A DNA stretch of 64,000 bases from Minisyncoccota bacterium (GTDB lineage: Bacteria > Patescibacteriota > Minisyncoccia > Moranbacterales > UBA2206), in assembly GCA_031291955.1 (NCBI GenBank), contig JARLIA010000005.1:74034-138033 (forward strand), given 5' to 3'. Both the position numbers and the translations under genes were made by a program. This document shows positions 3,855 through 56,862 of this stretch, piece by piece. The notes beneath the pieces were generated by a model. That model did no database searches, was not told the origin of the DNA, and was given only the letters and a program-made list of their open reading frames with translations. Each line of letters opens with the position of its first letter. Positions within the stretch are counted from its first letter, which is position 1.

Positions 3855-5654
3855 TTACACTTCGATCACCACTGGCAGAACCATCGGTCGCCGCTCCGTC
3901 TTTTGGAAAAGGTAGAGGCCGACAACTTCGCGGATTTTGTCTTCGATGAATTTCTTTTCGACAGAAGTGTTCTTGGAAGTTGTTTCTTTGATGGCCTTTT
4001 GGATCTTGCGTTTGGCTTCGTTCACCAGGTCGAAGTTATCCTTGACGTAGATGAAGCCGCGGGAAGTGACTTGGATGTTGCCGACCACTTTTTTGGTCTT
4101 GCTGTCCAGAAGGATGGTGATGACAAACATTCCGTCTTCGGAAAGGACTTGGCGGTCGCGGAGAACCACCTGGCCGATGTCGCCGATGCCCAGTCCATCG
4201 ACAAAGACGTAGCTCGTGTCGACTTTTTTAGCCAGCACCCGGGCCACGCCCCGTTGTATTTCCAAAACATTTCCATTATCCAAAACGAAAATATTTTCCT
4301 TCCGAAAGCCGATATGTTCGGCCAGTTTGGCGGCCTCTTTCAGCATATAGTGGTTGGCGTAGACCGGTACGAAAATGTCCGGGCGGACCTGGCGCAGCAT
4401 CTCCTCGATATCCGGGGCGCTACAGTGTCCGCTGGTGTGGAGATCCATCAGATTGCCGTGGATGACATTGTCGCATTTCCGGTAAAGGTTGTCTTTCAGC
4501 CGTTGGATGGTGCGTTCGTTGCCTGGAATGACGGAAGAAGAGAAAATTATTGTGTCGGTCTTTTTTATTTTGACGTGGCGATCATTGTCGGTGATGATCC
4601 GGGAAAGCGCGGCGTTATCTTCACCCTGCGCTCCGGTGCAAATGACCACGATCCGGTTTTCCGGAAACTTTCCGATCTCGGAAACCGGAATGAGCGTCTC
4701 TTTATGCGCCTTGATATAGCCCAGGCTTTTGGCGATCTCCACGTTCATCTTCATGCTATATCCCATAAGCGCCACCTTCTTGCCGATTTTTTCGGAGTAT
4801 TCCAGGATATGCCCGATCCTTTTGATCTGGGAAGAAAACGTGCCGATAATGATTTTTCCGGAAGCGGCGCTGATCAGTTTTTCCAAATTGCGATACATCT
4901 CCGCTTCAGTGGTGCGGTTGGGATTGGTAACGATGGCGCCCAAGCTCTCCAGCATCAGGATGCGCGGACTGGGAAGTCCTGTCAGGTGATGATAGGAAAT
5001 CGTTTTGCCCGAAGCGCTGTCTTTTTCCATTGTCCAGTCCCCGGGATGAATGACCGTTCCATCGGGAGTGCGGATGATCACGCCGACCGCGTCCATGATG
5101 GAATGCTCGACTTCAAAGAACGAAATTTCAAATTTGCCCAAGCGTATTTTGTCATCGGCCGAAGCGACTCGTCTGGTTTTGAGATTTTGAGATGAACCTT
5201 TTTCAAAATCTTCCATCCTTCTTTTTACCATGGCGATAGTCAGGTCGCGGCCGATGATCGGCGGATAGCCCAAGCTCTTGAGCAGGATCGGCGCCGCGCC
5301 GATGTGGTCAAGATGGCCGTGGCTCAAGATGACGCCGCGGATGTTTTTTTCTTTCCCTTTCAGATAGCTGATATTGGGAATGATGTAGTCGATACCGGGC
5401 ATGTCTTCCTCAGGGAATTGGATGCCCATATCTAAAATCACGATATCTCCGGCGTATTCGAAGACCGTCATGTTGCGGCCGACTTCCTCGTTTCCTCCCA
5501 AGGGGATGATGCGCAAAGTATCTCTGGTCGAGCCATGTGCTGGACGTCGAGAAGGGGATGATTGTGATTTGGTTGGCTTATTATCAGTCGCGGGAATTGC
5601 GTCCATGTTGTGTGTCCGGCCATAATGGTCAGGTCTGTTTTTTGGCTTATGCAT
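3855..5654 (-). CDS. rnj: ribonuclease J (metallo-beta-lactamase / beta-CASP), paralog 1
   Basis: HGHLDHIG metal motif, beta-CASP body and an RNase J C-terminal domain. Colinear similarity to the neighbouring paralog. Confidence 0.9.
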   Translation of the reverse strand: MHKPKNRPDHYGRTHNMDAIPATDNKPTKSQSSPSRRPAHGSTRDTLRIIPLGGNEEVGRNMTVFEYAGDIVILDMGIQFPEEDMPGIDYIIPNISYLKGKEKNIRGVILSHGHLDHIGAAPILLKSLGYPPIIGRDLTIAMVKRRMEDFEKGSSQNLKTRRVASADDKIRLGKFEISFFEVEHSIMDAVGVIIRTPDGTVIHPGDWTMEKDSASGKTISYHHLTGLPSPRILMLESLGAIVTNPNRTTEAEMYRNLEKLISAASGKIIIGTFSSQIKRIGHILEYSEKIGKKVALMGYSMKMNVEIAKSLGYIKAHKETLIPVSEIGKFPENRIVVICTGAQGEDNAALSRIITDNDRHVKIKKTDTIIFSSSVIPGNERTIQRLKDNLYRKCDNVIHGNLMDLHTSGHCSAPDIEEMLRQVRPDIFVPVYANHYMLKEAAKLAEHIGFRKENIFVLDNGNVLEIQRGVARVLAKKVDTSYVFVDGLGIGDIGQVVLRDRQVLSEDGMFVITILLDSKTKKVVGNIQVTSRGFIYVKDNFDLVNEAKRKIQKAIKETTSKNTSVEKKFIEDKIREVVGLYLFQKTERRPMVLPVVIEV

Positions 5655-5691: not shown

Positions 5692-7506
5692 TTAAACTTC
5701 TATTACAACCGGCAGAATCATGGGTCTTCTTTCCGTTTTTTGGTAGAGATATTGGCCGACGACTTCCCGGATGTTGTTTTTGACGTAGTCCCAGTTGACG
5801 GCTTGGTCGGGAGAAGTTTTTTGGGCCACTACTTCTTCGACTTTTTTCTTGGTGGCGTTCACGAGATCAAAGTTTTCTTTCACAAAAATAAATCCGCGAG
5901 AAGTGACTTGAGGTTTCCCGATGATCTTTTTCGTTTTGCTGTCGATAACCACGGTGATGACAAACATCCCGTCTTTGGCCAGGAGCTGGCGGTCGCGCAG
6001 CACTACTTGTCCCACGTCGCCCACTCCCAGTCCGTCCACCATGACGTTGGAAAGCGGAATTTTTTCGTTGGTCACCTTGCCGTTGCTGCGATAATCTAAT
6101 TCGATGACCCGGCCGTTTTCGCCAATGAGAATTTTGTCTTCTTTCATTCCGACCGCGAGTCCCAGTTCGCCGTGGAGTTTCAGCATGAAATAGTTGCCAT
6201 GGACGGGAATCAAGTATTTCGGCCGGATGAGATTGATCATCATCTTGAGATCTTCCTGGCGCGCGTGACCGCCAGCGTGGACATCCATCATTTTATAGTT
6301 GATGACTTTGGCGTCGTGGCGATAGATCGTGTCCATAATTCCTTGGACCGTCCGTTCATTTCCCGGAATGACCGAAGACGAAAGGACGAAGGTGTCATTT
6401 TTGTGGACTTTTACGAACCGGTGTTCGCCATTGACGATCCGCATGAGGACCGCATTGGATTCGCCTTGCGAGCCGGTGCAGAGAATGGCCACTTTGTTGT
6501 CGGGATATTCATTGACTTTGGAAATAGGAATGAACGTATTCTTTTTAGTCTGGAGATATCCGAGCGAGCGGGCGATTTCTACATTGGTTTTCATGGAATA
6601 GCCGTCCACGGCCACTTTTCGGCCGTGTTTTTCGGCGGCCGCTACCACCGATTGGATGCGGCTAATGAGCGAGGAGAAGGTGGCAAAAATAAGGCGCCCC
6701 TCCCGGGTCTGTTCAAAGATCTCATCCAGGGTTTTGGCAATCTTGGATTCGGACAGGGAATATCCGGGTGTGCGCGAATCGGTCGAGTCGCTCATGAGGG
6801 CTAGGACATTTTCGCTGCCGAGCCGGGCGATCTTGGCCACGTCGGCCGGTGCGTCAGAGATGGGGGAATGATCGAACTTGAAATCACCAGTGTGGACCAC
6901 GGTGCCGACCGGCGTAGTGATGGCCAGGCCCACCGCGTCGGGGATGGTATGGTTGACGTGGAAAAATTCTATGGAAAACGACCCGAGCCGGATGCGGTCG
7001 ATTTTTTTGACGGTGTGAATATTGAGCGGAGCCTTGTCTTGGTAATCCTCTTGGCGTTTCATAACGATGCCGCGGGTCAGTTCGGTCATATAGATCGGAG
7101 GATTGCCGAGTTTTTCCATCAGGTGCGGAATGGCGCCGATGTGGTCATAGTGTCCATGGGTGATTAAAACGCCGCGGATGTTATTTTCTTTGCCTTTCAA
7201 GTACGTTACGTCCGGGATGAGATAATCGATGCCGGGCATGTCCTCGTCCGGGAATTGCAGTCCCATGTCGACGATGATGATGTCCTGGCCATACTCAAAA
7301 ACGGTCATATTGCGGCCAATCTCCTCGAGGCCACCGAGCGGAATGATCCGGAGACTAGGGTTGCCACGGCCAAAAACGTGCGCCGCTGGCTTTCTCTGGG
7401 CGATGACGCCGGTTTTTATGACCGGGGCAACAGCTAAACCAGTCTGGCCAAAGTCGGCCGGTTCCTTCGGTTTTCTGAACATAAATTTGGAAGTGAAGTT
7501 GCTCAT
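5692..7506 (-). CDS. rnj: ribonuclease J, paralog 2
   Basis: HGHYDHIG motif. Colinear with paralog 1 over the whole length. ATG at 7506 preferred over the TTG at 7515. Confidence 0.9.
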   Translation of the reverse strand: MSNFTSKFMFRKPKEPADFGQTGLAVAPVIKTGVIAQRKPAAHVFGRGNPSLRIIPLGGLEEIGRNMTVFEYGQDIIIVDMGLQFPDEDMPGIDYLIPDVTYLKGKENNIRGVLITHGHYDHIGAIPHLMEKLGNPPIYMTELTRGIVMKRQEDYQDKAPLNIHTVKKIDRIRLGSFSIEFFHVNHTIPDAVGLAITTPVGTVVHTGDFKFDHSPISDAPADVAKIARLGSENVLALMSDSTDSRTPGYSLSESKIAKTLDEIFEQTREGRLIFATFSSLISRIQSVVAAAEKHGRKVAVDGYSMKTNVEIARSLGYLQTKKNTFIPISKVNEYPDNKVAILCTGSQGESNAVLMRIVNGEHRFVKVHKNDTFVLSSSVIPGNERTVQGIMDTIYRHDAKVINYKMMDVHAGGHARQEDLKMMINLIRPKYLIPVHGNYFMLKLHGELGLAVGMKEDKILIGENGRVIELDYRSNGKVTNEKIPLSNVMVDGLGVGDVGQVVLRDRQLLAKDGMFVITVVIDSKTKKIIGKPQVTSRGFIFVKENFDLVNATKKKVEEVVAQKTSPDQAVNWDYVKNNIREVVGQYLYQKTERRPMILPVVIEV

Positions 7507-7867
7507 AACGAGCAAACTTTGTTAGTTGCTGCGAATTGAAAATAATACGCGGCAATTTTGATTAAAGACTTTATTAATTCAAATCAAGCTATGATTTTTG
7601 AAGCAAAAGATTCAGAAATATTTTCCGAATTGAAGTGAAATAAAAAAAGTGGCGCCTTGATGAAGAGTTGAACTTCAAAGCCAAAAACTATTTTTTGACT
7701 ACTAACCTGTAAGGCAAAAGATTTTGCGAATAATACAAATAATACTAAAGAAGAAAACAAAAAGAAGACAAAAAGCGAAAGACGGAAGAAGAAGCTGATG
7801 AAGCTATTGTATCACAAGAGTATACACGAGGACAGGGAGAAAGTCAAGTCAAGTAGGATAATCAGGC

Positions 7868-17845: not shown

Positions 17846-20068
17846 ATGGAAAACAAATTCAAAATATCCTCCAAATTCAAGCCCGAAGGCGATCAGCCGC
17901 AGGCGATTGAAAAATTGACCGCGGGGCTTGAGGCTGGAAAAAAGTTCCAGACGCTTTTGGGCGTGACGGGGTCGGGGAAGACTTTTACCATTGCCAACGT
18001 CATTGAAAATATCCAAAAACCGACTTTGGTCATTGCGCCCAACAAGACTTTGGCGGCGCAACTGGCGCAGGAATTTCGGACTTTCTTTCCCAAAAGCGCG
18101 GTGGAATATTTCGTTTCCTATTATGATTATTATCAGCCGGAAGCCTACATCGCTTCCTCCGACACATACATCGAAAAGGAATCCCAGATCAACGACGAGA
18201 TCGACCGGCTTCGCCACGCGGCCACCGCGGCGCTCATGAGTCGCCGCGATGTCATCATTTGCGCTTCGGTGTCGTGTATCTACGGTTTGGGCAGCCCGGA
18301 ATATTATCGGAATATTACGCTGGAATTGGCGGTGGAGGACGGTTATTCGCAGGTTCGGGCGTCCACGCCCGAACCGCATAGTCCTGGTAAAACAAAATTA
18401 TCAGTCAAATCTGAATCGAAAATTTCCGCAGATAATAAAAAATTACCAGAAATGGCAGGTTCAATCGGGACGATTGAACCTGCAAAAAAAAATAATAGGG
18501 ACGAGATTGTAAAAAAATTGATCGACATGCAATATAATCGGAGCGATGTTTTGGCGCGGGGGAAATTCCGGCTGACCGGGAATACTCTGGAAATTATGCC
18601 GCCCGGACGGGAAATTGTAACGAGGATTGAAATGGAAGGGGGCAGTATTAAAAAAATATTCGAGTACGATTTTCTTACCGGCGAGGAACTGGGAAAGCTG
18701 GAAAAAGCGGTCATCTATCCAGCCAAACATTTCGTGGTGCCCGAACCGGTGATGGAAGGCGCTTTGGAAAAAATTCAAAAAGAAATGGAAGAGCAAGTGG
18801 AATTTTTCAAGCGTCAGGGAAAGATTCTGGAAGCGGAAAGGATTTCCCGTCGGACGCGCCAGGACATTGAAATGATGAGGGAAATCGGCTACTGCAATGG
18901 AATTGAAAACTATTCCCGCTTTCTCACTGAACGCCAGCCCGGTGAACCCCCCTACACTTTGATCGATTATTTTCCCGACGATTTTCTCATGGTGATTGAC
19001 GAATCGCATGTGACCGTGCCGCAACTCAACGGAATGTATAACGGCGACCACGCCCGGAAAGTCTCACTGATCGACAACGGCTTCCGCCTGCCTTCGGCTT
19101 TTGATAACCGCCCGCTTAAATTTCCGGAGTTCGAGAAAAAAATAAACCAGCTGATTTTCACGTCGGCGACACCGGCAAAATATGAAATGGAAAAATCAAA
19201 AATAGACCCCCTCTCCCGTAATCGGGAGAGGGTTGGGGAGAGGGCAACGCGGAACTCGGCGCCCTCTCTGTCGCGAGTACGCGACATCTCTCCCGAGTAC
19301 GGGGGAGAGGGAAATATTGTGGAACAAATTATTAGGCCGACCGGACTGATTGATCCAGAGCTGGAAATCAAGCCGACCAGAGGACAGGTGAAAGATGTGA
19401 CGGAGGAGATCAAAAAAATAATCGCCCGGAAGGAGCGGGTGCTTATCACCACGCTGACTAAAAAAATGGCCGAAGACTTGTCGGATTTCTTGAAAGAGAG
19501 CGAAGTGAAAGCTGAATATCTCCATTCCGGCGTGGACACTTTGGACCGGGTGCGGATTTTGGAACAATTGCGCCGGGGAAAATTTGATGTTCTGGTCGGA
19601 GTAAATTTGCTGCGGGAAGGGCTCGATCTTCCCGAAGTTTCTTTGGTGGCGATTCTCGACGCGGACAAAGAAGGATTTTTGCGGAGCGAAACGTCGCTCA
19701 TCCAAACCATCGGCCGCGCCGCGCGGAATGTCAAAGGAAAAGTTATTCTCTACGCCGACACCATTACCGGTTCGATGAAACGAGCTATCGACGAGACAAA
19801 CCGTCGCCGGGCAATCCAGACGGAATATAACAAAAAACATCGTATCACTCCAAAAACCATCAAGAAGAAAATCCAGTCGATCGTCGACCATGAAATCAAA
19901 CCTCAGGTGACGCGCGACTTTTCCCAATTGGAATCATTGGAGGATATGGCCGGCTACATTAAACAACGCGAGCGCGAAATGAAAGACGCGGCCCGGAATT
20001 TGGAATTTGAAAAAGCGGCGATCATCCGGGACGAGATAAGTGAGTTGAGGAAGCTGCAGATAAAATAG
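17846..20068 (+). CDS. uvrB: excinuclease ABC subunit B (740 aa, with two in-frame insertions)
   Basis: Walker A GVTGSGKT, helicase motifs, EQIIRPTGL, and C-terminal UVR domain EFEKAAIIRDEISELRKL. Confidence 0.95.
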   Translation: MENKFKISSKFKPEGDQPQAIEKLTAGLEAGKKFQTLLGVTGSGKTFTIANVIENIQKPTLVIAPNKTLAAQLAQEFRTFFPKSAVEYFVSYYDYYQPEAYIASSDTYIEKESQINDEIDRLRHAATAALMSRRDVIICASVSCIYGLGSPEYYRNITLELAVEDGYSQVRASTPEPHSPGKTKLSVKSESKISADNKKLPEMAGSIGTIEPAKKNNRDEIVKKLIDMQYNRSDVLARGKFRLTGNTLEIMPPGREIVTRIEMEGGSIKKIFEYDFLTGEELGKLEKAVIYPAKHFVVPEPVMEGALEKIQKEMEEQVEFFKRQGKILEAERISRRTRQDIEMMREIGYCNGIENYSRFLTERQPGEPPYTLIDYFPDDFLMVIDESHVTVPQLNGMYNGDHARKVSLIDNGFRLPSAFDNRPLKFPEFEKKINQLIFTSATPAKYEMEKSKIDPLSRNRERVGERATRNSAPSLSRVRDISPEYGGEGNIVEQIIRPTGLIDPELEIKPTRGQVKDVTEEIKKIIARKERVLITTLTKKMAEDLSDFLKESEVKAEYLHSGVDTLDRVRILEQLRRGKFDVLVGVNLLREGLDLPEVSLVAILDADKEGFLRSETSLIQTIGRAARNVKGKVILYADTITGSMKRAIDETNRRRAIQTEYNKKHRITPKTIKKKIQSIVDHEIKPQVTRDFSQLESLEDMAGYIKQREREMKDAARNLEFEKAAIIRDEISELRKLQIK
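18352..18483 (+). repeat. in-frame palindromic module 1 inside uvrB
   Basis: GGTTCGGGCG-TCCA-CGCCCGAACC (18352-18375) and GCAGGTTCAATCG-GGA-CGATTGAACCTGC (18455-18483) flank an A-rich word region. Confidence 0.85.
19209..19309 (+). repeat. in-frame palindromic module 2 inside uvrB (four consecutive hairpins)
   Basis: CCCTCTCCCG-TAAT-CGGGAGAGGG; GAGAGGGC-N15-GCCCTCTC; GTCGCG-AGTA-CGCGAC; CTCTCCCG-AGTA-CGGGGGAGAG. Confidence 0.85.
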
Positions 20069-20075
20069 TGAAAAA

Positions 20076-20087
20076 AGTTATCCACAG
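20076..20087 (+). promoter_or_regulatory. 12-mer AGTTATCCACAG containing a perfect DnaA-box consensus TTATCCACA
   Basis: Direct reading. 8 nt after the uvrB stop and 8 nt upstream of a -35 element. Confidence 0.6.
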
Positions 20088-20095
20088 GAGGGCGC

Positions 20096-20123
20096 TTGCT
20101 CATTCTTGTCGGAGTTCTATAAT
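20096..20123 (+). promoter_or_regulatory. promoter (TTGCTC, 16-nt spacer, TATAAT)
   Basis: Direct reading. Preceded by GGCGCTTGC. Confidence 0.55.
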
Positions 20124-20219
20124 TGAAACAGGCAAGGTTTGGAAACAAAGATACAATTAATGTTTCCGCGTATGAAATGCTATTTGGCTGGAAAATTAAA
20201 TGGCATTGCAATCATAATG

Positions 20220-20243
20220 AACACGTTTTAGGCGTGTTTTTTT
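20220..20243 (+). terminator. small rho-independent terminator
   Basis: AACACG-TTTTAGG-CGTGTT followed by TTTTT. Confidence 0.5.
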
Positions 20244-20259
20244 GTTCCCCGAAAACCCC

Positions 20260-20288
20260 TTGCAATTTTTCTCGAAACGTGCTATAGT
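20260..20288 (+). promoter_or_regulatory. promoter (TTGCAA, 17-nt spacer, TATAGT)
   Basis: Direct reading. Confidence 0.6.
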
Positions 20289-20294
20289 CGGCCG

Positions 20295-20615
20295 TTAGGA
20301 TAGGAAGATGGTTCTTTCAAAACTTGGTGCGTTTCAATTCTTAAATTAAACTTAGCTGTCTCACTAAAGACAATATGTATGGATGTTATTTTTAGCGAGG
20401 CAGTTAAGTTCTCAATATAAATTTTGCTCGCAGGAGCCACTTGAGCGAAGCACTCGTGGCATTTATCCGAAAGGATTTATACCATGCGCTCGGGAAAGGC
20501 CACTTCTGGGAAGCACTCGCGGCGGAAATCTCACCGTGCCCTAAAGGAGAGAAAAATTTATCTCTGCCAAGCCTCCGGGAAAGAAAGACATGTCTTTCTT
20601 TCCCATCCTCATTTT
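20295..20615 (+). ncRNA. candidate structured RNA or long leader (about 320 nt), class unknown
   Basis: Delimited by the 20260 promoter and the perfect 14-bp palindrome GGGAAAGAAAGACA/TGTCTTTCTTTCCC (20577-20604) plus a T tract. Contains two related 25-nt hairpin units (20436-20460, 20499-20523). No convincing ORF. Confidence 0.35.
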
Positions 20616-20677
20616 TGTTTGATTATACGGAAAAAGCAGTTATGCAGTTATAAAGTTTATTAGGAAAGGAGTTTGCC

Positions 20678-20890
20678 ATGTACGCTGCAAATGCGATGAG
20701 TGAGAGTCTGGTTTTGGCGGCAGTAACACTGGCGCCTCAGCCTGAGATGGCAGCAGTTCAGGGGATGTTCTTGTGTCGCCGCTGCGATGATTGTGGCGTT
20801 AGAGCTGATTTAAAATCAGCGGAGGGCAGCAGAGTAGTTCTTCAATGCCCCCGGTGTCAGAGGGAGTACACCTTTTTCAGTAGGGAGTAA
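20678..20890 (+). CDS. small zinc-ribbon protein (70 aa)
   Basis: Strong RBS GGAAAGGAG 7 nt upstream of the ATG. CRRCDDCG...CPRCQ, two CxxC pairs. Confidence 0.5.
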   Translation: MYAANAMSESLVLAAVTLAPQPEMAAVQGMFLCRRCDDCGVRADLKSAEGSRVVLQCPRCQREYTFFSRE

Positions 20891-20970
20891 TAAAAATGAA
20901 AACATTGAGGATTGAGACCGTGCCGGTAATCGGGACTTGTCAAAAGCATTGCTGACGAGTCCCTTTAAAT

Positions 20971-20999
20971 TTGTCTAAAAATAAATACTAATGTAGAAT
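20971..20999 (+). promoter_or_regulatory. promoter (TTGTCT, 17-nt spacer, TAGAAT)
   Basis: Direct reading, upstream of the 21028 gene. Confidence 0.55.
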
Positions 21000-21027
21000 A
21001 TGGCAGTAACTAATAAGAATAAAATAA

Positions 21028-22065
21028 ATGACGAACATGACGAAAAAAATAATCCTCATCGTGGTGATTGTGATTGTCGCGCTGGGGCTGGCGGGGTATA
21101 AATTTGCCAAGCCGGATTTTTCCAAGATTTTTGCCAAAAGCCAGACGACTAAGGTTCTGACGCCAGACCAGGCTAAAGTCAAAGCCCTGGATTATATCGA
21201 CAATAATCTGGTGCAAAAGGGCACAAAAGTAAGCGTGAAAAACATTGCTGAAGCGAACGGTCTTTATAAATTGGACCTGGATGTCAGCGGCCAGACCATT
21301 ACAGCCTATATGACCGAGGACGGTTCGCAGTTTTTTCCGAACGCTATGGACATGAATGCCGCGCCGGCCAAGCCAGCGGCGGCCGATCAGCAGCAAGCCG
21401 CCCAACAGCCGATTCCCAAAACAGACACGCCAAGCGTTCAACTTTTTGTGATGAGCTATTGTCCTTATGGCACGCAGATAGAAAAAGGGATTTTGCCGGC
21501 TCTTTCCGCTTTGGGAAGCAGTGTGAAATTTAATCTTGAATTTGTCGATTATTCCATGCACAACGATGCTTCGACCGGCGATCAGAAAGAACTCAACGAA
21601 AATTTGCGTCAGTATTGCATCCAGAAGCTCCAGCCGGATAAATTGGGAACTTACTTGAATTGCTTTTTGCAAAAAGGCCAGGGCACGGAAAGCGCTTGTA
21701 TGACCCAAGCCGGTGTGGACGCGGCGCCGGTCGCGACTTGTATGACAGCGACCGACAACCAATACAGCGTCAGTAAGAACTTTAAAGATCAAAGCACCTA
21801 CAATGGTCAGTTCCCGACGTTCAAAGTCGACGAAGCGGATAATCAGAAATATAACGTTCAAGGCTCGCCGACTTTGGTGATCAATGGAGTGGTTGATCAG
21901 GCTGGAAACCGTGATTCGGCTTCGCTGCTTAAGGATATTTGTTCAGCTTTCAATACAGCACCGGCCGCTTGCAGTACCGCTAAACTTTCTTCCACCGCGC
22001 CGTCGCCGGGATTCGGCACCGGTACGGACACGAGCGGTTCAAGCGCTAGTTGCGCGACGAAATAG
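21028..22065 (+). CDS. membrane-anchored secreted thioredoxin-fold-like protein
   Basis: N-terminal TM anchor. VQLFVMSYCPYGTQ resembles a thioredoxin/glutaredoxin active-site region but has only one Cys in the motif. Low-complexity S/T/G tail. Confidence 0.5.
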   Translation: MTNMTKKIILIVVIVIVALGLAGYKFAKPDFSKIFAKSQTTKVLTPDQAKVKALDYIDNNLVQKGTKVSVKNIAEANGLYKLDLDVSGQTITAYMTEDGSQFFPNAMDMNAAPAKPAAADQQQAAQQPIPKTDTPSVQLFVMSYCPYGTQIEKGILPALSALGSSVKFNLEFVDYSMHNDASTGDQKELNENLRQYCIQKLQPDKLGTYLNCFLQKGQGTESACMTQAGVDAAPVATCMTATDNQYSVSKNFKDQSTYNGQFPTFKVDEADNQKYNVQGSPTLVINGVVDQAGNRDSASLLKDICSAFNTAPAACSTAKLSSTAPSPGFGTGTDTSGSSASCATK

Positions 22066-22094
22066 AGTCGCGAAAGCAGAGCGAATGGTTAGCG

Positions 22095-22128
22095 AATAAG
22101 AGCGAATCCTTAAAGATTCGCTCTTATT
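22095..22128 (+). terminator. rho-independent terminator embedded in a GCGAAT/ATTCGC word palindrome (22081-22150)
   Basis: AATAAGAGCGAATC-CTTAAA-GATTCGCTCTTATT 14-bp perfect stem. Confidence 0.7.
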
Positions 22129-22162
22129 ATTATTCGCTTTAATTCGCTCATCATTTGCGATT

Positions 22163-22174
22163 AGTTATCCACAG
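22163..22174 (+). promoter_or_regulatory. 12-mer AGTTATCCACAG (perfect DnaA-box consensus inside)
   Basis: Direct reading. 7 nt upstream of the lexA -35 element, same arrangement as at 20076. Confidence 0.6.
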
Positions 22175-22181
22175 CCGGCGC

Positions 22182-22210
22182 TTGCGATGATATTTAATCA
22201 GTGCTAGAAT
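22182..22210 (+). promoter_or_regulatory. lexA promoter (TTGCGA, 17-nt spacer, TAGAAT) with overlapping inverted repeat CAGTG-N9-CACTG (22199-22217)
   Basis: Direct reading. Confidence 0.55.
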
Positions 22211-22241
22211 AACACTGTAATAAACTTAGATAATAAAAAAT

Positions 22242-22919
22242 ATGCAAAACACACAATCGCTTACCGGAAAGCAAAAGAACCTGCTCGAAACGATCCGGGA
22301 ATATGTTGACCAGCGAAATGAAAATCCGACCAGTTATCGCCTGCATAAATACTTGGAAGCGCAGGGCGTGAGAGACAGTTTGAAGTCTGTCATGCAAGTC
22401 ATTGAAGCTTTGGAGAAAAAAGATCTGGTGAAACGTGACGGCGACAAGCGGCTCTATCTCATTGAGAACGGCAATTATGCCAATCTGAAAAACATTTTTT
22501 CCGTGCCGGTCTATGGCTTGGCCTCTTGCGGCGAAGCCTTGGCCTACGCCGAGGACAACGTGGATGGGTTTTTGCAAATCTCCAAAGCCTTGTTTCGCGG
22601 GGCCGACTCGGCCAAACTTTTCGCCGTCAAAACTTTGGGTGATTCGATGGACAAAGATGGCATAAACGATGGCGATTACGTTATCTTTGAAAAATACGAA
22701 TACGACAAAGGAGAGGAGCTGGAAGGGAAAATCGTGGTGGCGGTCATCAATGGAATGGCGACGATCAAGAGATATAAAAAAGTGAGCGACGAAATCATCG
22801 GTCTTTTCCCGCGCTCGAAAAACACCGTCCACCAGCCGATCTTCATCCATTCTTCCGACTCGATCCTGGTCGCCGGGATTTTCCGGAAAGTGCTGCCGGT
22901 GAAATACGTAAGTTTGTAG
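22242..22919 (+). CDS. lexA: LexA-like repressor (wHTH plus S24 peptidase domain)
   Basis: GDSMDKDGINDGDYVIF (Ser nucleophile) and ATIKRY (Lys). Putative cleavage region VYGLASCGEALAY. Confidence 0.88.
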   Translation: MQNTQSLTGKQKNLLETIREYVDQRNENPTSYRLHKYLEAQGVRDSLKSVMQVIEALEKKDLVKRDGDKRLYLIENGNYANLKNIFSVPVYGLASCGEALAYAEDNVDGFLQISKALFRGADSAKLFAVKTLGDSMDKDGINDGDYVIFEKYEYDKGEELEGKIVVAVINGMATIKRYKKVSDEIIGLFPRSKNTVHQPIFIHSSDSILVAGIFRKVLPVKYVSL

Positions 22920-23014
22920 GCTTGCTTAAAATATTTTTCCGTACTACCCTGTATTAGATAAAAGTAAATACTAAGTACCCGATCTGGGGAAATTTTTGGC
23001 GTTGGGAAATTTTT

Positions 23015-26000
23015 ATGGACAAAATCATCATAAAAGGCGCGCGGGAGCATAATTTGAAGAACGTCGACTTGGAGCTGCCGCGGAATAAATTTATCGTTTT
23101 TACGGGAATTTCTGGGTCAGGGAAGTCGACCATGGCTTTTGATACTATTTTTGCCGAGGGGCAACGGCGCTATCTCGAAAGTCTTTCCAGTTACGCTCGG
23201 CAGTTTTTGGGGCAAATGAATAAGCCTGACGTGGACTATATTGAAGGTCTGTCGCCGGCCATTTCCATCGACCAGAAAGCGGCGTCCCACAATCCGCGTT
23301 CGACGGTTGGAACGGTGACGGAAATCCACGATTATTTGCGATTGCTATATGCCAAGATCGGCCGGCCACATTGTCCGATCTGCTCCCGGGAAATTACGAA
23401 GTTGTCGACAGATGAGATTGTTGATCGGATTTTGGAGATGTGCGCCGCGAAACCTCATCCGCCCCGGAGTACTGGGGCACCTTCTCCTTATAAAGGAGAA
23501 GGAGATAATGGAAGGGGCTGTTCTATCGAAATTCTATCGCCGGTGGTTCGCCAGCGGAAAGGGGAATATTCGACGATGCTGGCTGAGATGTTCCGGCGGG
23601 GGTTTTCCCGCGCTTACGTCAATGGGGAAAAATACGAACTGTCGGCCAAGATCGGAGACGAGTTGGAATTGGCCCGCTACAAAAAACATAATATTGATAT
23701 CGTGGTAGATGAGGTGGAGATATCTAGCGACAACATTTCGCGAATATTTGAAGGAGTGGAAAAGGCGCTGAAGTTGTCGGACGGACTGGTCAAGATAAGA
23801 TCCGAAATCCGAAATACGAAATCCGAAACAATGTCAAAATCAAAAATTAAAAATTCAAAACAAAACAATACGGAAATTGTTTTCAACCAAAAACTTTCTT
23901 GTCCGATCCATGAGATTGAGTTTCCGGAGTTGGAGCCGCGTTTGTTTTCTTTCAACAGTCCGTTTGGCGCTTGTCCGGCTTGCGAAGGATTGGGAACGAA
24001 AAAAGAAATCGACCCGGCGCTGGTGGCGCCGGATAAAAACAAAACGATTGCTGAGGGTGGCATCTTCCCTTGGAGCTACAAACGGAATAACTGGCAAGGG
24101 TCGGTTCTCCGGGCGGTTTGCAATCATTTCCACATCAAAGACAATGTGCGCCTCCGTGACCTTTCGGAAGATGACCTCAACATCTTAATGTTCGGCGGAC
24201 CGGATGCGACCGATATGATAGATAAGGAAGAAGCGGAAGAAATACCCGTCACTTTGAAATCAAAAACCGGTTCAAGCTGGAAATATTACATGACCTGGCG
24301 CGGAGCGGTCGGATATCTTCAAGATCGATATTTCAAGACCGATTCGGATGCGGTGCGGGCGGATATTGAAAAATATATGTCGCAAAATCCGTGTTCGGTC
24401 TGTCACGGCGCGCGTTACAAAAAAGAAGTCTTGCTGGTGACGGTCGGCGAATCCCGCCCGCAACGCTTCGCTAACGCAAGTGTTAGCTTGCGTAGCGATG
24501 CGGGCGGGAAAAATATTGTCGAAGTCTCAAATGTGTCTGTGGCTGAGACGCTTAAATTTTTCGAAAGACTGGAATTGAATAAAAATGAGCAGATCATCGC
24601 CGGGAGAATTTTGAAGGAAATTATTAATCGCCTAGGCTTTTTGGAAAACGTGGGACTGGGATATTTGACTTTGGCCAGATCCGCGGCGACACTAGCCGGC
24701 GGGGAAGCGCAACGGATCCGCTTGGCATCGCAAATCGGTTCGGGTCTCACCGGCGTTTTGTATATTTTGGACGAACCGTCGGTCGGTCTTCACTCGCGCG
24801 ACAACACTAAATTGCTCGAGACGCTTTTTCATCTGCGCGATCTGGGAAACACGCTAATCGTGGTTGAGCACGATGAAGAGACGATGCGGGAGGCCGACTA
24901 TTTGGTTGACATCGGACCGGGAGCGGGAAAATTGGGAGGTAAAATTGTGGCGCATGGCACGCCGGTAGAAGTTATTCGCGATAAAAAATCTTTAACCGCG
25001 GCATATTTGCGGGGTGACGCGAAAATAGAAATGCCGAAATTCCGCCGGCCAGTCAAGAATAAAAAAACGATTGTTGTCCGCGGCGCGCGCGAACACAATT
25101 TGAAAAACATTACCGTCGAGTTTCCTTTAAAAGTTTTGACGTGTGTGACGGGCGTGTCCGGCTCGGGGAAATCCACATTGGTAGAGGACATCCTTTATAA
25201 AGCCTTGGCGTCAAAAATCATGCGGACGCTCGACCGGCCGGGGAAACATTCGGAGATTGTCGGCACGCAATATGTTAACAAAGTGATCATGATCGACCAG
25301 TCGCCGATCGGTCGGACGCCGCGCTCCAATCCGGCGACTTATACCGGGCTCTTTACGCCGATCCGGGAATTATTTTCCCAGACCCGGGACGCCAAATCCA
25401 AGGGTTATGGTCCGGGGCGCTTTTCGTTCAACATCCGGGGCGGACGCTGTGACAACTGCCAAGGCGACGGCCAGCTTAAAATTGAGATGCAGTTCATGCC
25501 GGATGTCTATTTGCCTTGCGATGTCTGTCACGGAAAAAGATACAACAGTGAGACCTTGAAAGTGAAATACAAGGACAAAAACATTTCCGAAGTTTTGGAC
25601 ATGACGGTCAGCGAAGGGCGCGAGTTTTTTGAGAATTTTCCGGCTATTCACGACAAGCTGGCGGTTTTGGAAGACGTCGGCTTGGGCTATATCCAACTCG
25701 GGCAGTCCGCCACCACACTTTCCGGCGGGGAAGCGCAAAGGATAAAACTGGCCACGGAACTGGCAAGGAGGGCGACCGGCGACACTTTGTATATTCTGGA
25801 CGAACCGACGACTGGCCTCCATTTTGACGACATTAAAAAACTTTTGAATGTTTTGAACCGCTTGGTCGATGCCGGCAACACAGTGGTGGTGATCGAACAC
25901 AATTTGGACGTCGTCAAAACCGCCGATTGGATCATTGACTTGGGTCCGGAAGGCGGAGAAGGCGGCGGAAAAATTATCGTTACCGGTCCGCCGGAAGAAG

Positions 26001-26062
26001 TGGCGAAATATCATAAGGAAAGCTGGACGGGAAAGTATCTGAGAGATGTATTGAAAAAGTAG
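23015..26062 (+). CDS. uvrA: excinuclease ABC subunit A (1015 aa, with several in-frame insertions)
   Basis: Two ABC ATPase modules ([18 protein letters not shown]), LSGGEAQR signatures and zinc modules CxxC. Confidence 0.95.
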   Translation: MDKIIIKGAREHNLKNVDLELPRNKFIVFTGISGSGKSTMAFDTIFAEGQRRYLESLSSYARQFLGQMNKPDVDYIEGLSPAISIDQKAASHNPRSTVGTVTEIHDYLRLLYAKIGRPHCPICSREITKLSTDEIVDRILEMCAAKPHPPRSTGAPSPYKGEGDNGRGCSIEILSPVVRQRKGEYSTMLAEMFRRGFSRAYVNGEKYELSAKIGDELELARYKKHNIDIVVDEVEISSDNISRIFEGVEKALKLSDGLVKIRSEIRNTKSETMSKSKIKNSKQNNTEIVFNQKLSCPIHEIEFPELEPRLFSFNSPFGACPACEGLGTKKEIDPALVAPDKNKTIAEGGIFPWSYKRNNWQGSVLRAVCNHFHIKDNVRLRDLSEDDLNILMFGGPDATDMIDKEEAEEIPVTLKSKTGSSWKYYMTWRGAVGYLQDRYFKTDSDAVRADIEKYMSQNPCSVCHGARYKKEVLLVTVGESRPQRFANASVSLRSDAGGKNIVEVSNVSVAETLKFFERLELNKNEQIIAGRILKEIINRLGFLENVGLGYLTLARSAATLAGGEAQRIRLASQIGSGLTGVLYILDEPSVGLHSRDNTKLLETLFHLRDLGNTLIVVEHDEETMREADYLVDIGPGAGKLGGKIVAHGTPVEVIRDKKSLTAAYLRGDAKIEMPKFRRPVKNKKTIVVRGAREHNLKNITVEFPLKVLTCVTGVSGSGKSTLVEDILYKALASKIMRTLDRPGKHSEIVGTQYVNKVIMIDQSPIGRTPRSNPATYTGLFTPIRELFSQTRDAKSKGYGPGRFSFNIRGGRCDNCQGDGQLKIEMQFMPDVYLPCDVCHGKRYNSETLKVKYKDKNISEVLDMTVSEGREFFENFPAIHDKLAVLEDVGLGYIQLGQSATTLSGGEAQRIKLATELARRATGDTLYILDEPTTGLHFDDIKKLLNVLNRLVDAGNTVVVIEHNLDVVKTADWIIDLGPEGGEGGGKIIVTGPPEEVAKYHKESWTGKYLRDVLKK
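23461..23502 (+). repeat. in-frame double hairpin inside uvrA
   Basis: GCCCCGG-AGTA-CTGGGGC (23461-23478) and CCTTCTCCTT-ATA-AAGGAGAAGG (23480-23502). Confidence 0.85.
24452..24509 (+). repeat. in-frame 58-nt long hairpin inside uvrA
   Basis: Outer stem TCCCGCCCGC/GCGGGCGGGA (10 bp). Inner stem GCTA(A)CGCAAG/CTTGCGTAGC. Confidence 0.85.
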
Positions 26063-26067
26063 AAATT

Positions 26068-27327
26068 ATGACGACCATCCTCCAAAAGCTGAAAAACCTG
26101 CCTCAATCACCGGGGGTGTATATTTTCTATGATAAAAATAGAAATATTTTGTACGTGGGAAAAGCGACGTCGCTTAAAGATAGGGTTGGTTCGTATTTTC
26201 AGAATAAGATTGGGGCGGTGCGGACGATTGAGATGTATATGAATGAAGTGACGGATCTGGAGATCAAGAAAACCGACACGGTTTTGGAAGCGTATATTTT
26301 GGAACAATCTTTGATCAAAAAACTTCAGCCGAAATATAACGCGATGGGGAAAGACGATAAGTCATTTACGTACGTACTTCTTTCTAAGGAAGAATTTCCG
26401 AGATTCGCGGTGGTACGGGAAACTGATTTGGATAGTGTAAAATCATCGCCCCGTGGGGGGCAAAAATCTTTGCCCCCCACGGCGAAGGTTTATGGTCCGT
26501 ATACGTCGAAACGGCAAATTGAGGCGGCCTTGAAAATCTTACGGAAAATTTTTCCCTATCACAACCGGCCGGAACATTCGGAGTCCCGGTGTTTTGATTA
26601 TCATCTTGGGCTTTGCCCCGGACCGTATGACGGGAAGATTTCCAAAAAAGAATACGTCAAAAATATCCGGGCGATAAAAATGATCTTGGAAGGGAAGAAG
26701 AAAGGACTTATAAACCGGATGAAAAAAGAGATGGAAGAATGTTCAGACAAGGCTGAATTTGAAAAGGCGGCGGAGGTGCGGAACAGGATTTTTGCGTTGC
26801 AACACATCCAGGACGTGGCGCTGATATCTGATCATAGAGACGCAATTAATCGCGTCTCTGTGGACGACGCAATGATGCGCATCGAAGGTTATGATATTTC
26901 CAATATTTCCGGGAAATTTGCGACTGGTTCGATGGTGGTGTTTGATAATTCAGACGGTGAAATGCAGCCGAATAAATCGCAATATCGTAAATTCAAAATC
27001 AAAAATGTTGAAGGCGCCAATGACGTGGGGGCAATGGAAGAAATGCTTACCAGGAGATTTCGGAACAATTGGCCGCGGCCGAATTTGATTTTGCTCGACG
27101 GCGGAGCCGGGCATTTGAATATGGCGCGGAAAGTCCTGCGGAATCACAAAATAGAAATTCCCTTGCTGGCGGTGGCCAAAGGGCCGGCGCGGAAAAAACT
27201 GGATCTGCGAAGTTTCGGGACCGTGCCGGAACTGCCAAAAAATATCATCGAACAAGTGAGAAACGAAGCGCATCGCTTCGCGATCAGTTATCATAGGAAA
27301 TTGAGAGGTAAATCGTTCACGGATTAA
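26068..27327 (+). CDS. uvrC: excinuclease ABC subunit C, compact form (419 aa)
   Basis: GIY-YIG (GVYIFYDKNRNILYVGKA), UVR domain (AEFEKAAEVRNRIFALQ), endonuclease domain (RIEGYDISN...EAHRFAISYHR). Ends right after that motif. Confidence 0.9.
   Translation: MTTILQKLKNLPQSPGVYIFYDKNRNILYVGKATSLKDRVGSYFQNKIGAVRTIEMYMNEVTDLEIKKTDTVLEAYILEQSLIKKLQPKYNAMGKDDKSFTYVLLSKEEFPRFAVVRETDLDSVKSSPRGGQKSLPPTAKVYGPYTSKRQIEAALKILRKIFPYHNRPEHSESRCFDYHLGLCPGPYDGKISKKEYVKNIRAIKMILEGKKKGLINRMKKEMEECSDKAEFEKAAEVRNRIFALQHIQDVALISDHRDAINRVSVDDAMMRIEGYDISNISGKFATGSMVVFDNSDGEMQPNKSQYRKFKIKNVEGANDVGAMEEMLTRRFRNNWPRPNLILLDGGAGHLNMARKVLRNHKIEIPLLAVAKGPARKKLDLRSFGTVPELPKNIIEQVRNEAHRFAISYHRKLRGKSFTD
26447..26484 (+). repeat. 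in-frame hairpin inside uvrC
   Basis: CCGTGGGGGGCAAA-AATC-TTTGCCCCCCACGG, a perfect 14-bp stem (26451-26482). Confidence 0.9.
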
Positions 27328-27407
27328 GCCTTGAAGTGGCCAATGCTTTGACATCTCTTGCCAAATCCTCTACAATACATCTCTAGTAAGCAATCTTCTT
27401 TCAAACT

Positions 27408-30221
27408 ATGCCCACTCAAAAATCTTCTCCTAAAAATACTTTCTCACTGAAGGATAAAATCGTCATCCGTGGCGCGCGGGTGAATAATTTGAAGAACATC
27501 GACGTGGACATTCCGCGGGATAAATTGGTCGTAGTGACAGGTCTTTCCGGGTCGGGGAAATCTTCTTTGGCTTTTGACGTGGTCTACGCCGAAGGCAATC
27601 GGCGGTATCTGGAAGGCATGTCGAGCTACGCCCGGCAGTTTTTGGATGTTTCGGCTAAACCGGACGTGGACAAAATAGAGAATTTGAGCCCGACCATCTC
27701 AATTGATCAAAAAAGCTTGAGTCGTTCACCTCGCTCGACGGTCGGGACGCTCACGGAAATTTACGATTATTTGCGAGTGCTCTACGCCAAAGTGGGAACG
27801 CCCTATTGTCCTCATTGTCTCTTGCCGATGGGGCGCAAAAAGAACCAGGAAATTTTGGAGGAAATTTTGGTTTTGCCGGAAAATACCCAAGTGGCGGTCC
27901 TGGCTCGGATAAAAAATGAAGGTCAGAGTGTTAAGGATATTCTCAAAAACATCAGTCAGCTTGGTTATGCCCGGGCGCGGGTTGGCGGTAAAATCGTCTT
28001 GATTGCCGACGCCTTGCTTTTTCCGGAAGAAAACTTGAGCGGCAACGTCGAAATCGTGGTTGACCGGATCAATCTCAAGAAAAAAAATCCCGATCACGAA
28101 CGGATGTTGGATTCTATTGAGACTGCTTTTAAATTGGGGAAAGGTTTTATGGCGGTCGCAATCGATAATGGTGAGAGCCGGATTTATAATCAAAATTTTG
28201 TTTGCAGCAACTGCTATTTCAAAATTTCGGAAATCACGCCCAAGAATTTTTCTTTCAACAGTCCCGAAGGCGCCTGCGAACATTGCGCGGGAATGGGTAC
28301 TATCCAGGAAGTGGACGAGGATCTGATCATTCCTAACAGAAATCTCACTTTGGCCGAAGGAGCTATTATGCCGCTCGCCAAGTCCGGCGGCCGGGCTGGG
28401 TATCTCGATACTCTCACCAAGATCGGCGAGAAAGCGGGTTTTTCCGTGAATGAACCGGCGCGGAACATTTCCAAGGAAAATTTGAAAGTTATTTTTCATG
28501 GTTTTGGTGTGCCTGGTACTCCTGGTTATTTTGAGGGAGTGGTGCCGATGATTCGAAAAAAATATACCGAAGCGGCCACTCAGACGGCCCGGACCGACAT
28601 CGAAAAATATATGCTGGAAAAAGATTGTCCCGAGTGTGGAGGCAAGCGTTTGAAAAAAGAATATTTATCCGTCTTGATGAGCGGGAAATCGATCGACGAT
28701 TTGGTCCGGATGGATATCGATACTCTCATTTTATTTTTAGAAAATTTACGGACTGCCGATTTGAGTGCCGCCAAAGCGGAAATCGTGGCGCCATTGGCAA
28801 AAGAAATGATCGCCAAAGCCAAGGCGCTCAAGAACGTCGGCTTGGAATATCTGTCACTTTCCCGCCGGGCCGATTCCATTTCCGGCGGCGAAGGTCAGCG
28901 CATCCGGCTCGCAACTCAAATTGGATCGGAACTTTCCGGTATTATCTATGTTCTGGACGAACCGTCTATCGGTCTCCATTCCCGAGACAATGAAAAGTTG
29001 ATCGACACGATGGAAAAGCTGAAAGAGAACGGCAATTCTCTGATCGTGGTCGAGCATGACAAAGACATTATCGAGTGCGCCGATTGGGTGATCGACATGG
29101 GTCCCGGGGCAGGGGAGTTCGGCGGGGAAGTTATCTTTTCCGGTTCGGTGAAAAAAATGGAGAGCGTCGCGACATCCACTGCCAAGTTCCTTTCCGGCCG
29201 GGAAAAAGTAACGGTTAAGAAGAAACCGCGAACGGCATCGAAGAACTTTTTGGAAATCCTGGGTGCCGCAGAACACAATTTGAAAAATATCGACGTCCGG
29301 ATTCCACTCGGCCGTTTTGTTGCCGTCTCGGGCGTGTCCGGTTCGGGGAAATCCACTTTGGTAACCGACATTCTGGCTCGAGAGCTGGCCCGGCATTTTT
29401 GGAAGGCTAAGAAAAATCCCGGAAAGCATGATAAAATCACTGGTCTTAACCGCTTGGATAAAGTGATTAATATCGATCAATCGCCGATCGGCCGGACGCC
29501 GCGTTCCAATGCCGCCACCTACACCGGTGTCTTTTCACTTATTCGGGAACTTTTCTCCGCCACCGAAGAGGCGAAAAAACGGGGCTACGATGCCAGTCGC
29601 TTCAGTTTTAATGTCCGGGGCGGCCGTTGCGAAGATTGCCAAGGCGACGGAACAAAAAAGATCGAGATGCATCTTTTGCCGGATATGTATGTCAAATGCG
29701 AAACTTGCCAGGGAACGCGCTATAACGCCAAGACGCTTGATATTGAATATCAGGGTGCTACCGTCGCCCAGGTGCTGGATATGAGTGTTTCCTACGCGCT
29801 TCGCTTTTTCCATAAATCGCCGCTTATCGCGGCTAAACTGAAAACGCTGGAAGAAGTCGGCCTGGGCTACATCAAACTGGGACAGAGCGCCACAAATCTT
29901 TCCGGCGGAGAAGCGCAGCGGATAAAATTGGCTACCGAGCTCGCCCGGAAATCGACCGGCAAGACTTTGTATATTTTAGATGAACCGACCATCGGGTTGC
30001 ACTTTGAAGATGTGCGGAAATTGCTTCAGGTGCTGGACGCGCTGGTCGAAAAAGGCAACACTGTTCTTGTGGTGGAACATAATTTGGACGTCATCAAGAA
30101 CGCCGACTGGGTGATTGATCTCGGGCCGGAAGGCGGAAACGGGGGCGGCGAAATTGTTTACGCCGGCGAACCGAAGGGGCTGAAGAAAGCGAAGAGGAGT
30201 TGGACAGGAAAATATCTGTAA
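27408..30221 (+). CDS. uvrA: excinuclease ABC subunit A, second paralog (937 aa, no obvious insertions)
   Basis: Same domain order as 23015..26062: [23 protein letters not shown] signatures and zinc modules. Confidence 0.93.
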
Positions 30222-30360
30222 AAAATTTTCAATTTTCAATTTTCAATTTACAATCAATTTTCAATGATTCAATTTTCAATTCAGAAGACGATGCGGACTT
30301 GAAAATTGATAATTATTTGAGTTGATCATTCATTGATGATTGATTATTGTAAATTGATAA
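30222..30360. repeat. AT-rich word-stutter imperfect palindrome (TTTTCAA words), copy 1
   Basis: TTTTCAATTTTCAATTTTCAATTT at 30226-30249 is identical to 56742-56765. The right half carries complementary TTGA-type words (AAAATTGATAATT...). Confidence 0.8.
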
Positions 30361-56739: not shown

Positions 56740-56862
56740 AATTTTCAATTTTCAATTTTCAATTTCTAAACAATTTCCAATGTATGAATTGATAAATTTT
56801 AAAATTGGTAAATTAAATAATTGTTTGAAAATTAAAAATTAGAAATTGAAAATTTAAATAAT
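56740..56862. repeat. AT-rich word-stutter imperfect palindrome (TTTTCAA words), copy 2
   Basis: 56742-56765 is identical to 30226-30249. The right half carries AAATTGAAAATT, the reverse complement of AATTTTCAATTT. Confidence 0.8.

Follow-up and report, generated by a model that had tools for sequence, protein, structure and literature searches.

Why should a perfect hairpin lie in frame inside uvrC, and why should similar palindromes gather in the excision-repair genes beside it? The question is raised by a 64,000-nt stretch (the window) of contig JARLIA010000005.1, from a bacterium of the candidate phyla radiation (CPR) whose closest relatives are Moranbacteria-like. The uvrC hairpin occupies nucleotides 26451-26482 (CCGTGGGGGGCAAA-AATC-TTTGCCCCCCACGG, 32 nt in total), and an outer CGCC/GGCG helix lengthens it to about 26446-26487. 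An earlier reading of the window from its letters alone (the sequence-only reading) had reported a perfect 14-bp hairpin with the loop AATC, in frame in uvrC, at 26447-26484; sequence and fold statistics bear this out, and the limits given were close to those of the exact stem-loop. The hairpin is one copy of a dispersed palindrome family and not a unique structure. We regard it and its fellows as probable palindromic elements of the GTAG type that resemble repetitive extragenic palindromic (REP) sequences, inserted in frame, tolerated in disordered loops and presumably spread by a transposase.

As RNA, the uvrC hairpin folds at -35.7 kcal/mol (z -6.25), and none of 200 dinucleotide shuffles did as well; the DNA fold has an energy of -21.5 kcal/mol (z -6.6). 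When the codons of uvrC were shuffled (n=200), the best stem averaged 7.0 bp and reached 11 bp at most, compared with 14 bp in the actual gene. Two independent Logan assemblies (L001, L002) have the identical gene, as has the NCBI metagenome-assembled genome (labelled Candidatus Pacebacteria), and the presence of the same hairpin in the two Logan assemblies excludes an assembly artefact. The open reading frame (ORF) around the hairpin reads ...SVKSSPRGGQKSLPPTAKVYGPYTS; the hairpin itself corresponds to the peptide PRGGQKSLPPT, part of SSPRGGQKSLPPTA (residues about 127-140). Solved GIY-YIG structures align to UvrC residues 4-100 and the Pfam match to GIY-YIG stops at residue 91, so the insert (residues about 128-139) falls after this domain. 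The hairpin does precede a VYGPYTS motif, as had been proposed, but the motif follows the GIY-YIG domain instead of lying within it.

Comparison with orthologues established that the uvrC hairpin is an in-frame insertion. When 120 homologues (53-79% identity; 97 loci compared) were aligned, the loop between FPRF..R.TD and (K)IYGPYTS, here called site 1, varied from a few residues to about 70. Across 80 genome loci its basal state, that of most bacteria, is 6 residues (18 nt). In independent CPR lineages (L004, L008, L014, L017, L018 and L040) the loop is 54-150 nt long and folds at -17 to -58 kcal/mol, with hairpin-forming inserts of 30-130 nt; Moranbacteria-like relatives likewise carry hairpin-forming inserts there. 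Inserts had stems of at least 10 bp in 12% of cases versus 1% of controls, figures usable as a trend only, since defining inserts by alignment columns halved hairpins and let in the true HhH domain of UvrC from outside the CPR; a 60-nt sliding minimum free energy with a cut-off of -21 kcal/mol was too noisy. Based on an AlphaFold2 model of UvrC built from 52 sequences (mean predicted local distance difference test score, pLDDT, 75), the palindrome-encoded stretches sit in disordered loops. The pLDDT fell below 50 at just four stretches (88-98, 126-134, 165-167 and 254-267), of which 126-134 and 254-267 are the locations of the two palindrome-encoded peptides. Relatives repeatedly carry insertions at UvrC residues about 165-175 as well.

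The site 1 hairpin belongs to a 34-nt sequence family, F5, with the consensus CCCGTAGGGGGCAAAAATTTTTGCCCCCTACGGG (GTAG...CTAC); in the window copy GTAG is changed to GTGG and CTAC to CCAC. The consensus itself is present at a second UvrC loop (site 2, immediately ahead of the RNase H-like domain) in L099, in near-identical form at site 2 in L100 and in degenerate form in L101, and another copy, TCCGTAGGGGGCGAAAATTTTCGCCCCCTACCGG, lies inside uvrA1 of L099. F5 occupies three non-homologous uvr positions in other genomes, and its members come from unrelated samples. When five copies were aligned, 3 of the 15 stem pairs were changed on both sides (the GTGG/CCAC change of the window copy among these changes), a number reached in 4 of 500 shuffles, and the covariation score was reached in just 1 of 500; judging from these sequences, the F5 stem is maintained by compensatory changes. 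The peptide R(R/G)GQKFLPPTG recurs at site 2 in 8 additional homologues. Two reading frames are used by the F5 copies (RRGQKFLPPT, VGGENFRPL), and the third would introduce a TAG codon; what is conserved is thus the DNA and not the peptide.

Other families behave in the same way, and F1, F2, F3 and F6 all recur at non-homologous uvr positions. Copies of F1 (CCCTCTCC..GGAGAGGG) are read in all three frames. The window, L083 and L003 have F2 (GTAGAGACGC..GCGTCTCTAC) at site 2 of uvrC, and L095 has it in uvrA1; uvrC of L004 has it elsewhere (4269-4298), with a different yet complementary centre, and carries an F1 hairpin at site 2. F3 has the core AAGGTTC..GAACCTT. F6 is found in uvrA1 of the window and, at other positions, in L091 (6704-6772) and uvrA1 of L093; the Paceibacterota locus L040 has it in uvrC. 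Across the 120 homologues, site 2 alone carries at least six unrelated palindromes read as protein (RDAINRVST, RDALQCVST, RDEAVPRLYG, GQKFLPPTG, KPHPDPLLIKERG and NFQFPISNFQ..KFKIQNSKF). The F2 stem was also present in 93 stretches of IMG/VR viral contigs, where 80 of 104 copies were intergenic or at the edge of a gene and 18 had the exact GATTAATC centre of L003; this distribution is as expected for a dispersed REP-like element.

A bias towards uvr genes had been proposed from the window alone, and it was reproduced outside it. In 20 Moranbacteria-like loci (window excluded), GC-rich hairpins of at least 10 pairs with at most 1 mismatch numbered 23 in 67.6 kb of uvrA1, uvrB and uvrC versus 5 in 101 kb of other ORFs (ratio 6.9, P = 6.5e-6). 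We then counted internal perfect stems of at least 10 bp and GC content of at least 0.4 in 99 non-window loci (1.42 Mb), which had been selected by UvrC homology, independently of hairpin content. The density was 0.217 per kb in uvrC (27 hairpins in 124 kb), 0.122 in uvrB (6 in 49 kb), 0.039 in uvrA1 (5 in 128 kb), 0.030 in uvrA2 (1 in 33 kb) and 0.010 in other genes (8 in 828 kb). Taken together, uvrA1, uvrB and uvrC had 38 hairpins in 302 kb compared with 9 in 864 kb of the remaining genes, a 12-fold difference (binomial P = 5e-15). Several of the hits to other genes in an earlier scan lay at ORF ends and are probably extragenic. The preference for uvr genes is statistically real, and the adjacent uvrA2 is at background density.

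Within the window, uvrB, uvrA1 and uvrC together hold about ten palindromic modules of several families (Table 1), and every GC-rich perfect stem of 10 bp or more in coding sequence (six in total) falls in these three genes. The other stems of this length are mostly terminator-like (many of them AT-rich) at gene ends, or intergenic. The sequence-only reading had listed groEL, pilB, guaA, guaB and trpS as free of modules; Pfam confirmed their identities and none carried one. Its statement that all three excinuclease genes are loaded agrees with the hairpin scan and the ortholog comparison, but a second uvrA in the same cluster has no module. In uvrB, the two hairpins bounding the 49-aa insert are related (common ends GCAGGTTC..GAACC), and the insert is absent in 21 of 21 orthologues of up to 73% identity. 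Three hairpins of the uvrB nest (19209-19232, 19237-19269 and 19287-19310) are of the F1 type (CCCTCTCCC..GGGAGAGGG); the fourth is GTCGCG-agta-CGCGAC (19270-19285). The clearest insertion is that of 57 nt in uvrA1: it is absent in 15 of 15 orthologues and lies within an A7 run with no target-site duplication; both arms consist of new sequence, and the palindrome does not involve the flanks GGCGAA | AAAAAT. All inserts in uvrA1, uvrB and uvrC of the window, and in full-length orthologous ORFs, are in frame and free of stops.

Short palindromes with these habits have been described before. Di Nocera, De Gregorio and Rocco (2013, BMC Genomics 14:522; PMC3733652) distinguished two super-families, tagged by GTAG or CGTC, with GTGG as a known variant and complementary stem changes setting sub-families apart. 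They reported such REPs within uvrABC(D), recBCD, polA and dnaE2, these repair genes often being the sole tagged coding sequences of a species (uvrB of R. conorii, uvrA of Thioalkalivibrio, both uvrA of Opitutus terrae; 10 excinuclease entries in the supplement). They proposed RAYTs (REP-associated tyrosine transposases, of the IS200/IS605-type Y1 class) as mobilisers of GTAG REPs, noted that recombinant E. coli RAYT cuts at the GTAG motif, and speculated on a mutator effect (PMC3733652).

The window elements share much with GTAG REPs. Those are palindromes of 20-40 nt with GC-rich stems of 5-13 bp, short loops and a GTAG (or GTRG/GTGG) end, and the uvrC hairpin, with its 14-bp stem and 4-nt loop, answers to the short-REP description. 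In both cases there are several families per genome, sub-families related by complementary stem changes, and nested or grouped copies; in both, intragenic copies of 7-30 aa are in frame, concentrated in uvrA, uvrB and uvrC, with few or none in other coding sequences, and these are often the only tagged genes. They differ in that the host here belongs to the CPR (Patescibacteria), outside the phyla listed in the 2013 survey, and in that the load is heavier, with about ten modules in three genes and hot-spot loops that host at least six families across orthologues.

We favour insertion of mobile REP-like elements, which seems to us considerably more probable than any alternative considered below. 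A short GC-rich element of the GTAG/CTAC type would have inserted into uvrC, and the copy would persist because the insertion keeps the frame and lands in a disordered surface loop, where it may be translated as about 11 extra residues. Such elements could spread as single-stranded hairpins by means of an HUH/Y1 tyrosine transposase (IS200/IS605-RAYT type) or an equivalent hairpin-recognising activity, and selection would then purge copies that disrupt the reading frame or fall in structured parts of the protein. A mechanism of the IS200/IS605 type would leave no target-site duplication, and none is present at the uvrA1 element; the boundaries of the uvrC copy are undefinable because the surrounding loop is variable. 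Mobilisation by a Y1/HUH enzyme is what we infer.

Several observations weigh against this explanation. Classical REPs are mostly extragenic and highly repeated, with the GTAG tag unpaired, whereas the GTAG/GTGG tetranucleotide of F5 pairs with CTAC/CCAC inside the stem of a fully symmetric palindrome. No high-copy extragenic population appeared in the sequence examined; extragenic copies were seen only for F1 (a spacer of L004) and F2 (phage contigs). An approximate search of the 64-kb window for a second copy of the uvrC hairpin returned only the hairpin itself, the exact pattern GTGGGGGGCAAA-N2-8-TTTGCCCCCCAC had 0 matches in JGI metagenome contigs, and an exact-pattern scan of viral contigs for the F5 consensus gave 0 matches. 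Neither the window nor the annotated flanks of relatives contain a transposase or RAYT gene, and Pfam, applied to 46 of the 49 window ORFs of at least 110 aa, detected no transposase. Translation of the insert is deduced from conservation of the frame. Finally, the P values of the uvr bias ignore the shared ancestry of some hairpins; many families and sites are involved, and most insertion events are therefore likely independent.

Tolerance alone is insufficient to account for the uvr preference, because intergenic DNA and the paralogous uvrA2 are spared. A bolder reading, to which we assign a low probability, is that hairpin elements specifically target, or are specifically selected in, the excision-repair genes of CPR bacteria, which would then be more than tolerant hosts. 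Either the elements would gain from weakening or retuning UvrABC, or the hairpins would provide structure-based post-transcriptional control common to uvrA1, uvrB and uvrC. In the first version, single-stranded hairpins or covalent transposase-DNA intermediates would otherwise be substrates of nucleotide excision repair (NER). If true, this reading would explain the sparing of the adjacent uvrA2 and lexA, and the occurrence of the same bias in Proteobacteria, Verrucomicrobia, Rickettsia and now CPR.

Of low probability, too, is the idea that the hairpins are selected cis-acting structures, on uvr mRNA (RNase processing or pausing) or on DNA (cruciform or operator), which would tune or co-regulate the three excision-repair genes, for example by lowering NER towards a mutator-like state. 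The uvr-specific enrichment, with adjacent uvrA2 and lexA at background, fits this idea, as do the compensatory changes that preserve stem pairing; transposase recognition of the hairpin, however, equally predicts stem conservation. The F2 codons at site 2 are identical at 7 of 8 positions between the window and L003 and at 8 of 8 between L083 and L003, compared with identity at only 51-53% of the same-residue codons elsewhere for these two pairs (64% for the window versus L083). Di Nocera et al. also doubted that the targeting of repair genes is fortuitous (PMC3733652). On the other side, many unrelated sequences occupy the same loops, so that structure is their sole common feature, and the uvrC hairpin has no U-tract for termination. 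Close orthologues are hairpin-free at the same sites (L084 and L085; P0005 at site 1), and hence no hairpin is essential. A selected regulatory structure is possible, then, at a low probability.

Quasi-palindrome mutations by template switching (the Ripley model) create or perfect short palindromes and could keep both arms identical. That the palindromes arose in place during replication in this manner, by snap-back or quasi-palindrome correction, is very unlikely. Many copies are indeed perfect, with loops of 0-4 nt, no identical copy exists elsewhere in the window, and templated arm-to-arm correction could also yield paired changes. Yet template switching copies local sequence, and here the same 34-nt family stands at three non-homologous positions in other genomes, and both arms of the uvrA1 insert are new, its flanks being uninvolved. 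On the grounds of recurrence at unrelated sites and of new arms, we rejected a template-switch origin for the uvrC hairpin and the uvrA1 insert.

Strong hairpins within coding regions may also be left untranslated, through ribosome bypass or RNA removal, as in T4 gene 60 or the mitochondrial byp elements. Here such an escape is highly improbable: the finding that all inserts are in frame and stop-free argues against bypass, no stop codon follows a take-off site, and the family copies avoid the frame that would create TAG. Bypass elements interrupt the frame or have a stop beside a take-off codon, with take-off and landing codons that match; the uvrC frame, by contrast, is open and stop-free across the hairpin. 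A chance palindrome, or an artefact of assembly or amplification of the general kind conceivable in any metagenome assembly, has next to no probability, given the fold statistics (z about -6), the codon shuffles, the identical sequence in three assemblies and the family members from unrelated samples. Ribosomal bypass, chance and artefact are, for practical purposes, excluded.

Two other kinds of repeat invite comparison. The Rickettsia palindromic elements (RPE), reportedly described by Ogata et al. in 2000 and also treated in PMC3733652, are likewise selfish palindromic DNA lying in frame in conserved protein genes and tolerated in surface loops. RPE-1 elements are longer palindromic insertions (about 100-150 nt), CGTC-tagged and Rickettsia-specific; the window element is of 32-34 nt, of the GTAG/GTGG type and in a CPR host, and is not one of them. 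DNA uptake sequences of Neisseria and Pasteurellaceae are biased to genome-maintenance genes (PMC2817400, PMC2397512) and resemble the window palindromes as short repeated motifs overrepresented in repair and replication genes, in poorly conserved protein segments. However, an uptake sequence is one fixed 9-12-mer with thousands of copies and no need of a hairpin, whereas here there are many unrelated palindromes; nothing ties them to DNA uptake, and the analogy is distant.

The repair-gene bias of such palindromes was already published (PMC3733652), and the present case is of that known kind, though extreme, unusually dense and in a phylum new to it. Our literature search found neither a CPR-specific report of such palindromes nor a later explanation of the bias described in 2013. 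The CPR, too, show a preference of REP-like palindromes for uvrABC, and in extreme form; what stands out is about ten modules in three genes of one genome, loops that serve as hot spots for multiple families, and uvrA2 as a built-in negative control. This makes a compact system for telling apart targeting, selection on repair activity and regulation as the source of the bias. For annotation, the extra peptides of CPR Uvr proteins would, if translated as their frames suggest, represent selfish DNA and not functional motifs.

Table 1. Genes of the uvr cluster and palindromic modules (positions in the window)
Feature	Position	Strand	Description
uvrB	17846-20068	+	740 aa, about 85 residues above orthologue length owing to two inserts
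uvrB left hairpin	18352-18375	.	GGTTCGGGCGT-cc-ACGCCCGAACC; left end of 49-aa insert
uvrB right hairpin	18453-18485	.	GCAGGTTCAATCG-gga-CGATTGAACCTGC; right end of 49-aa insert
uvrB four-hairpin nest	19205-19312	.	insert of about 37 aa, partly common to L093
lexA-like gene	22242-22919	+	S24 peptidase and LexA DNA-binding domain; upstream of uvrA1; no module
uvrA1	23015-26062	+	1015 aa
uvrA1 adjacent hairpin pair	23462-23504	.	variable loop; CCCCGGAGTACTGGGG, then F1-type CCTTCTCCTT-ata-AAGGAGAAGG
uvrA1 F6 hairpin	24452-24509	.	58 nt, imperfect; matches clean 57-nt (19-aa) insertion
uvrC	26068-27327	+	419 aa; GIY-YIG 15-91, UVR 213-246, UvrC RNase H-like 264-406; no HhH2
uvrC hairpin	26451-26482	.	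14-bp perfect stem, loop AATC; F5 member; loop site 1
uvrC second palindrome	26836-26859	.	AGAGACGCAATT|AATCGCGTCTCT, 11/12 pairs, F2; encodes RDAINRVS; loop site 2, just before RNase H-like domain
uvrA2	27408-30221	+	paralogue, 80 nt downstream of uvrC; no module; internal control

Two candidates were discarded in the course of the family searches. F1-like matches (GCTCTCCGGCGGAGAAG) in uvrA are not inserts; they represent the ABC signature LSGGE, whose codons (CTCTCCGGCGGAGAA) form a natural F1-like quasi-palindrome (for example L007 985-1001, L026 9309-9325 and L031 8216-8232) and give false positives in pattern searches. An apparent transposon of 1.86 kb bounded by F2 palindromes (spacing constant at 1857 nt among related phages, as in L104, 559-586 and 2416-2443) proved to be a conserved block of phage capsid genes with intergenic palindromes. 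In the viral contigs (L102-L181; 37-69% GC) the palindrome GTAGAGACGC-N8-GCGTCTCTAC is widespread and mostly intergenic, and it occasionally lies in frame within phage proteins (L142, L143).

In L083, the closest relative (79% identity), the in-frame insert at site 1, QIFNFQFSIFNEFSISKF, carries a (TTTTCAA)n motif; AT-rich inverted repeats of the same motif occur in the window spacers 30231-30320 and 56739-56855, and NFQFPISNFQ inserts akin to QIFNFQFSIFNEFSISKF are common at site 2 of other homologues. In uvrC of L091, one element (..CGACCAAAAGCGGACGGACCGCT..) is present at two loops, sites 0 and 1, which suggests that it spread within a single gene. UvrC of the CPR clade (the window gene and homologues P0001-P0120) is only 363-509 aa long, without the C-terminal (HhH)2, and retains 2 cysteines at the place where the E. 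coli protein has four.

The gene order uvrB, small genes, lexA-like gene, uvrA1, uvrC and uvrA2 (17846-30221) is conserved in L085, L093, L099, L100 and L101, and in some of the relatives the interval from lexA to uvrA1 includes additional genes (L099 has one with an NYN domain, L101 an Avd-like 23S_rRNA_IVP gene). Upstream of lexA, uvrA1 and uvrB there was no obvious shared SOS-box palindrome, and nothing hairpin-like. Searches of Rfam returned only tRNAs for the entire window at gathering scores, and nothing for 20000-21100 at E <= 1. The roughly 960 bp that separate uvrB from the next long ORF (20069-21027) contain strong hairpins (20351-20410 and 20932-20963), a perfect 14-bp zero-loop palindrome (20577-20604; GGGAAAGAAAGACA|TGTCTTTCTTTCCC) and a 70-aa CxxC...CxxC ORF (20678-20890). 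On the minus strand, two tandem RNase J paralogues occupy 3855-5654 and 5692-7515.

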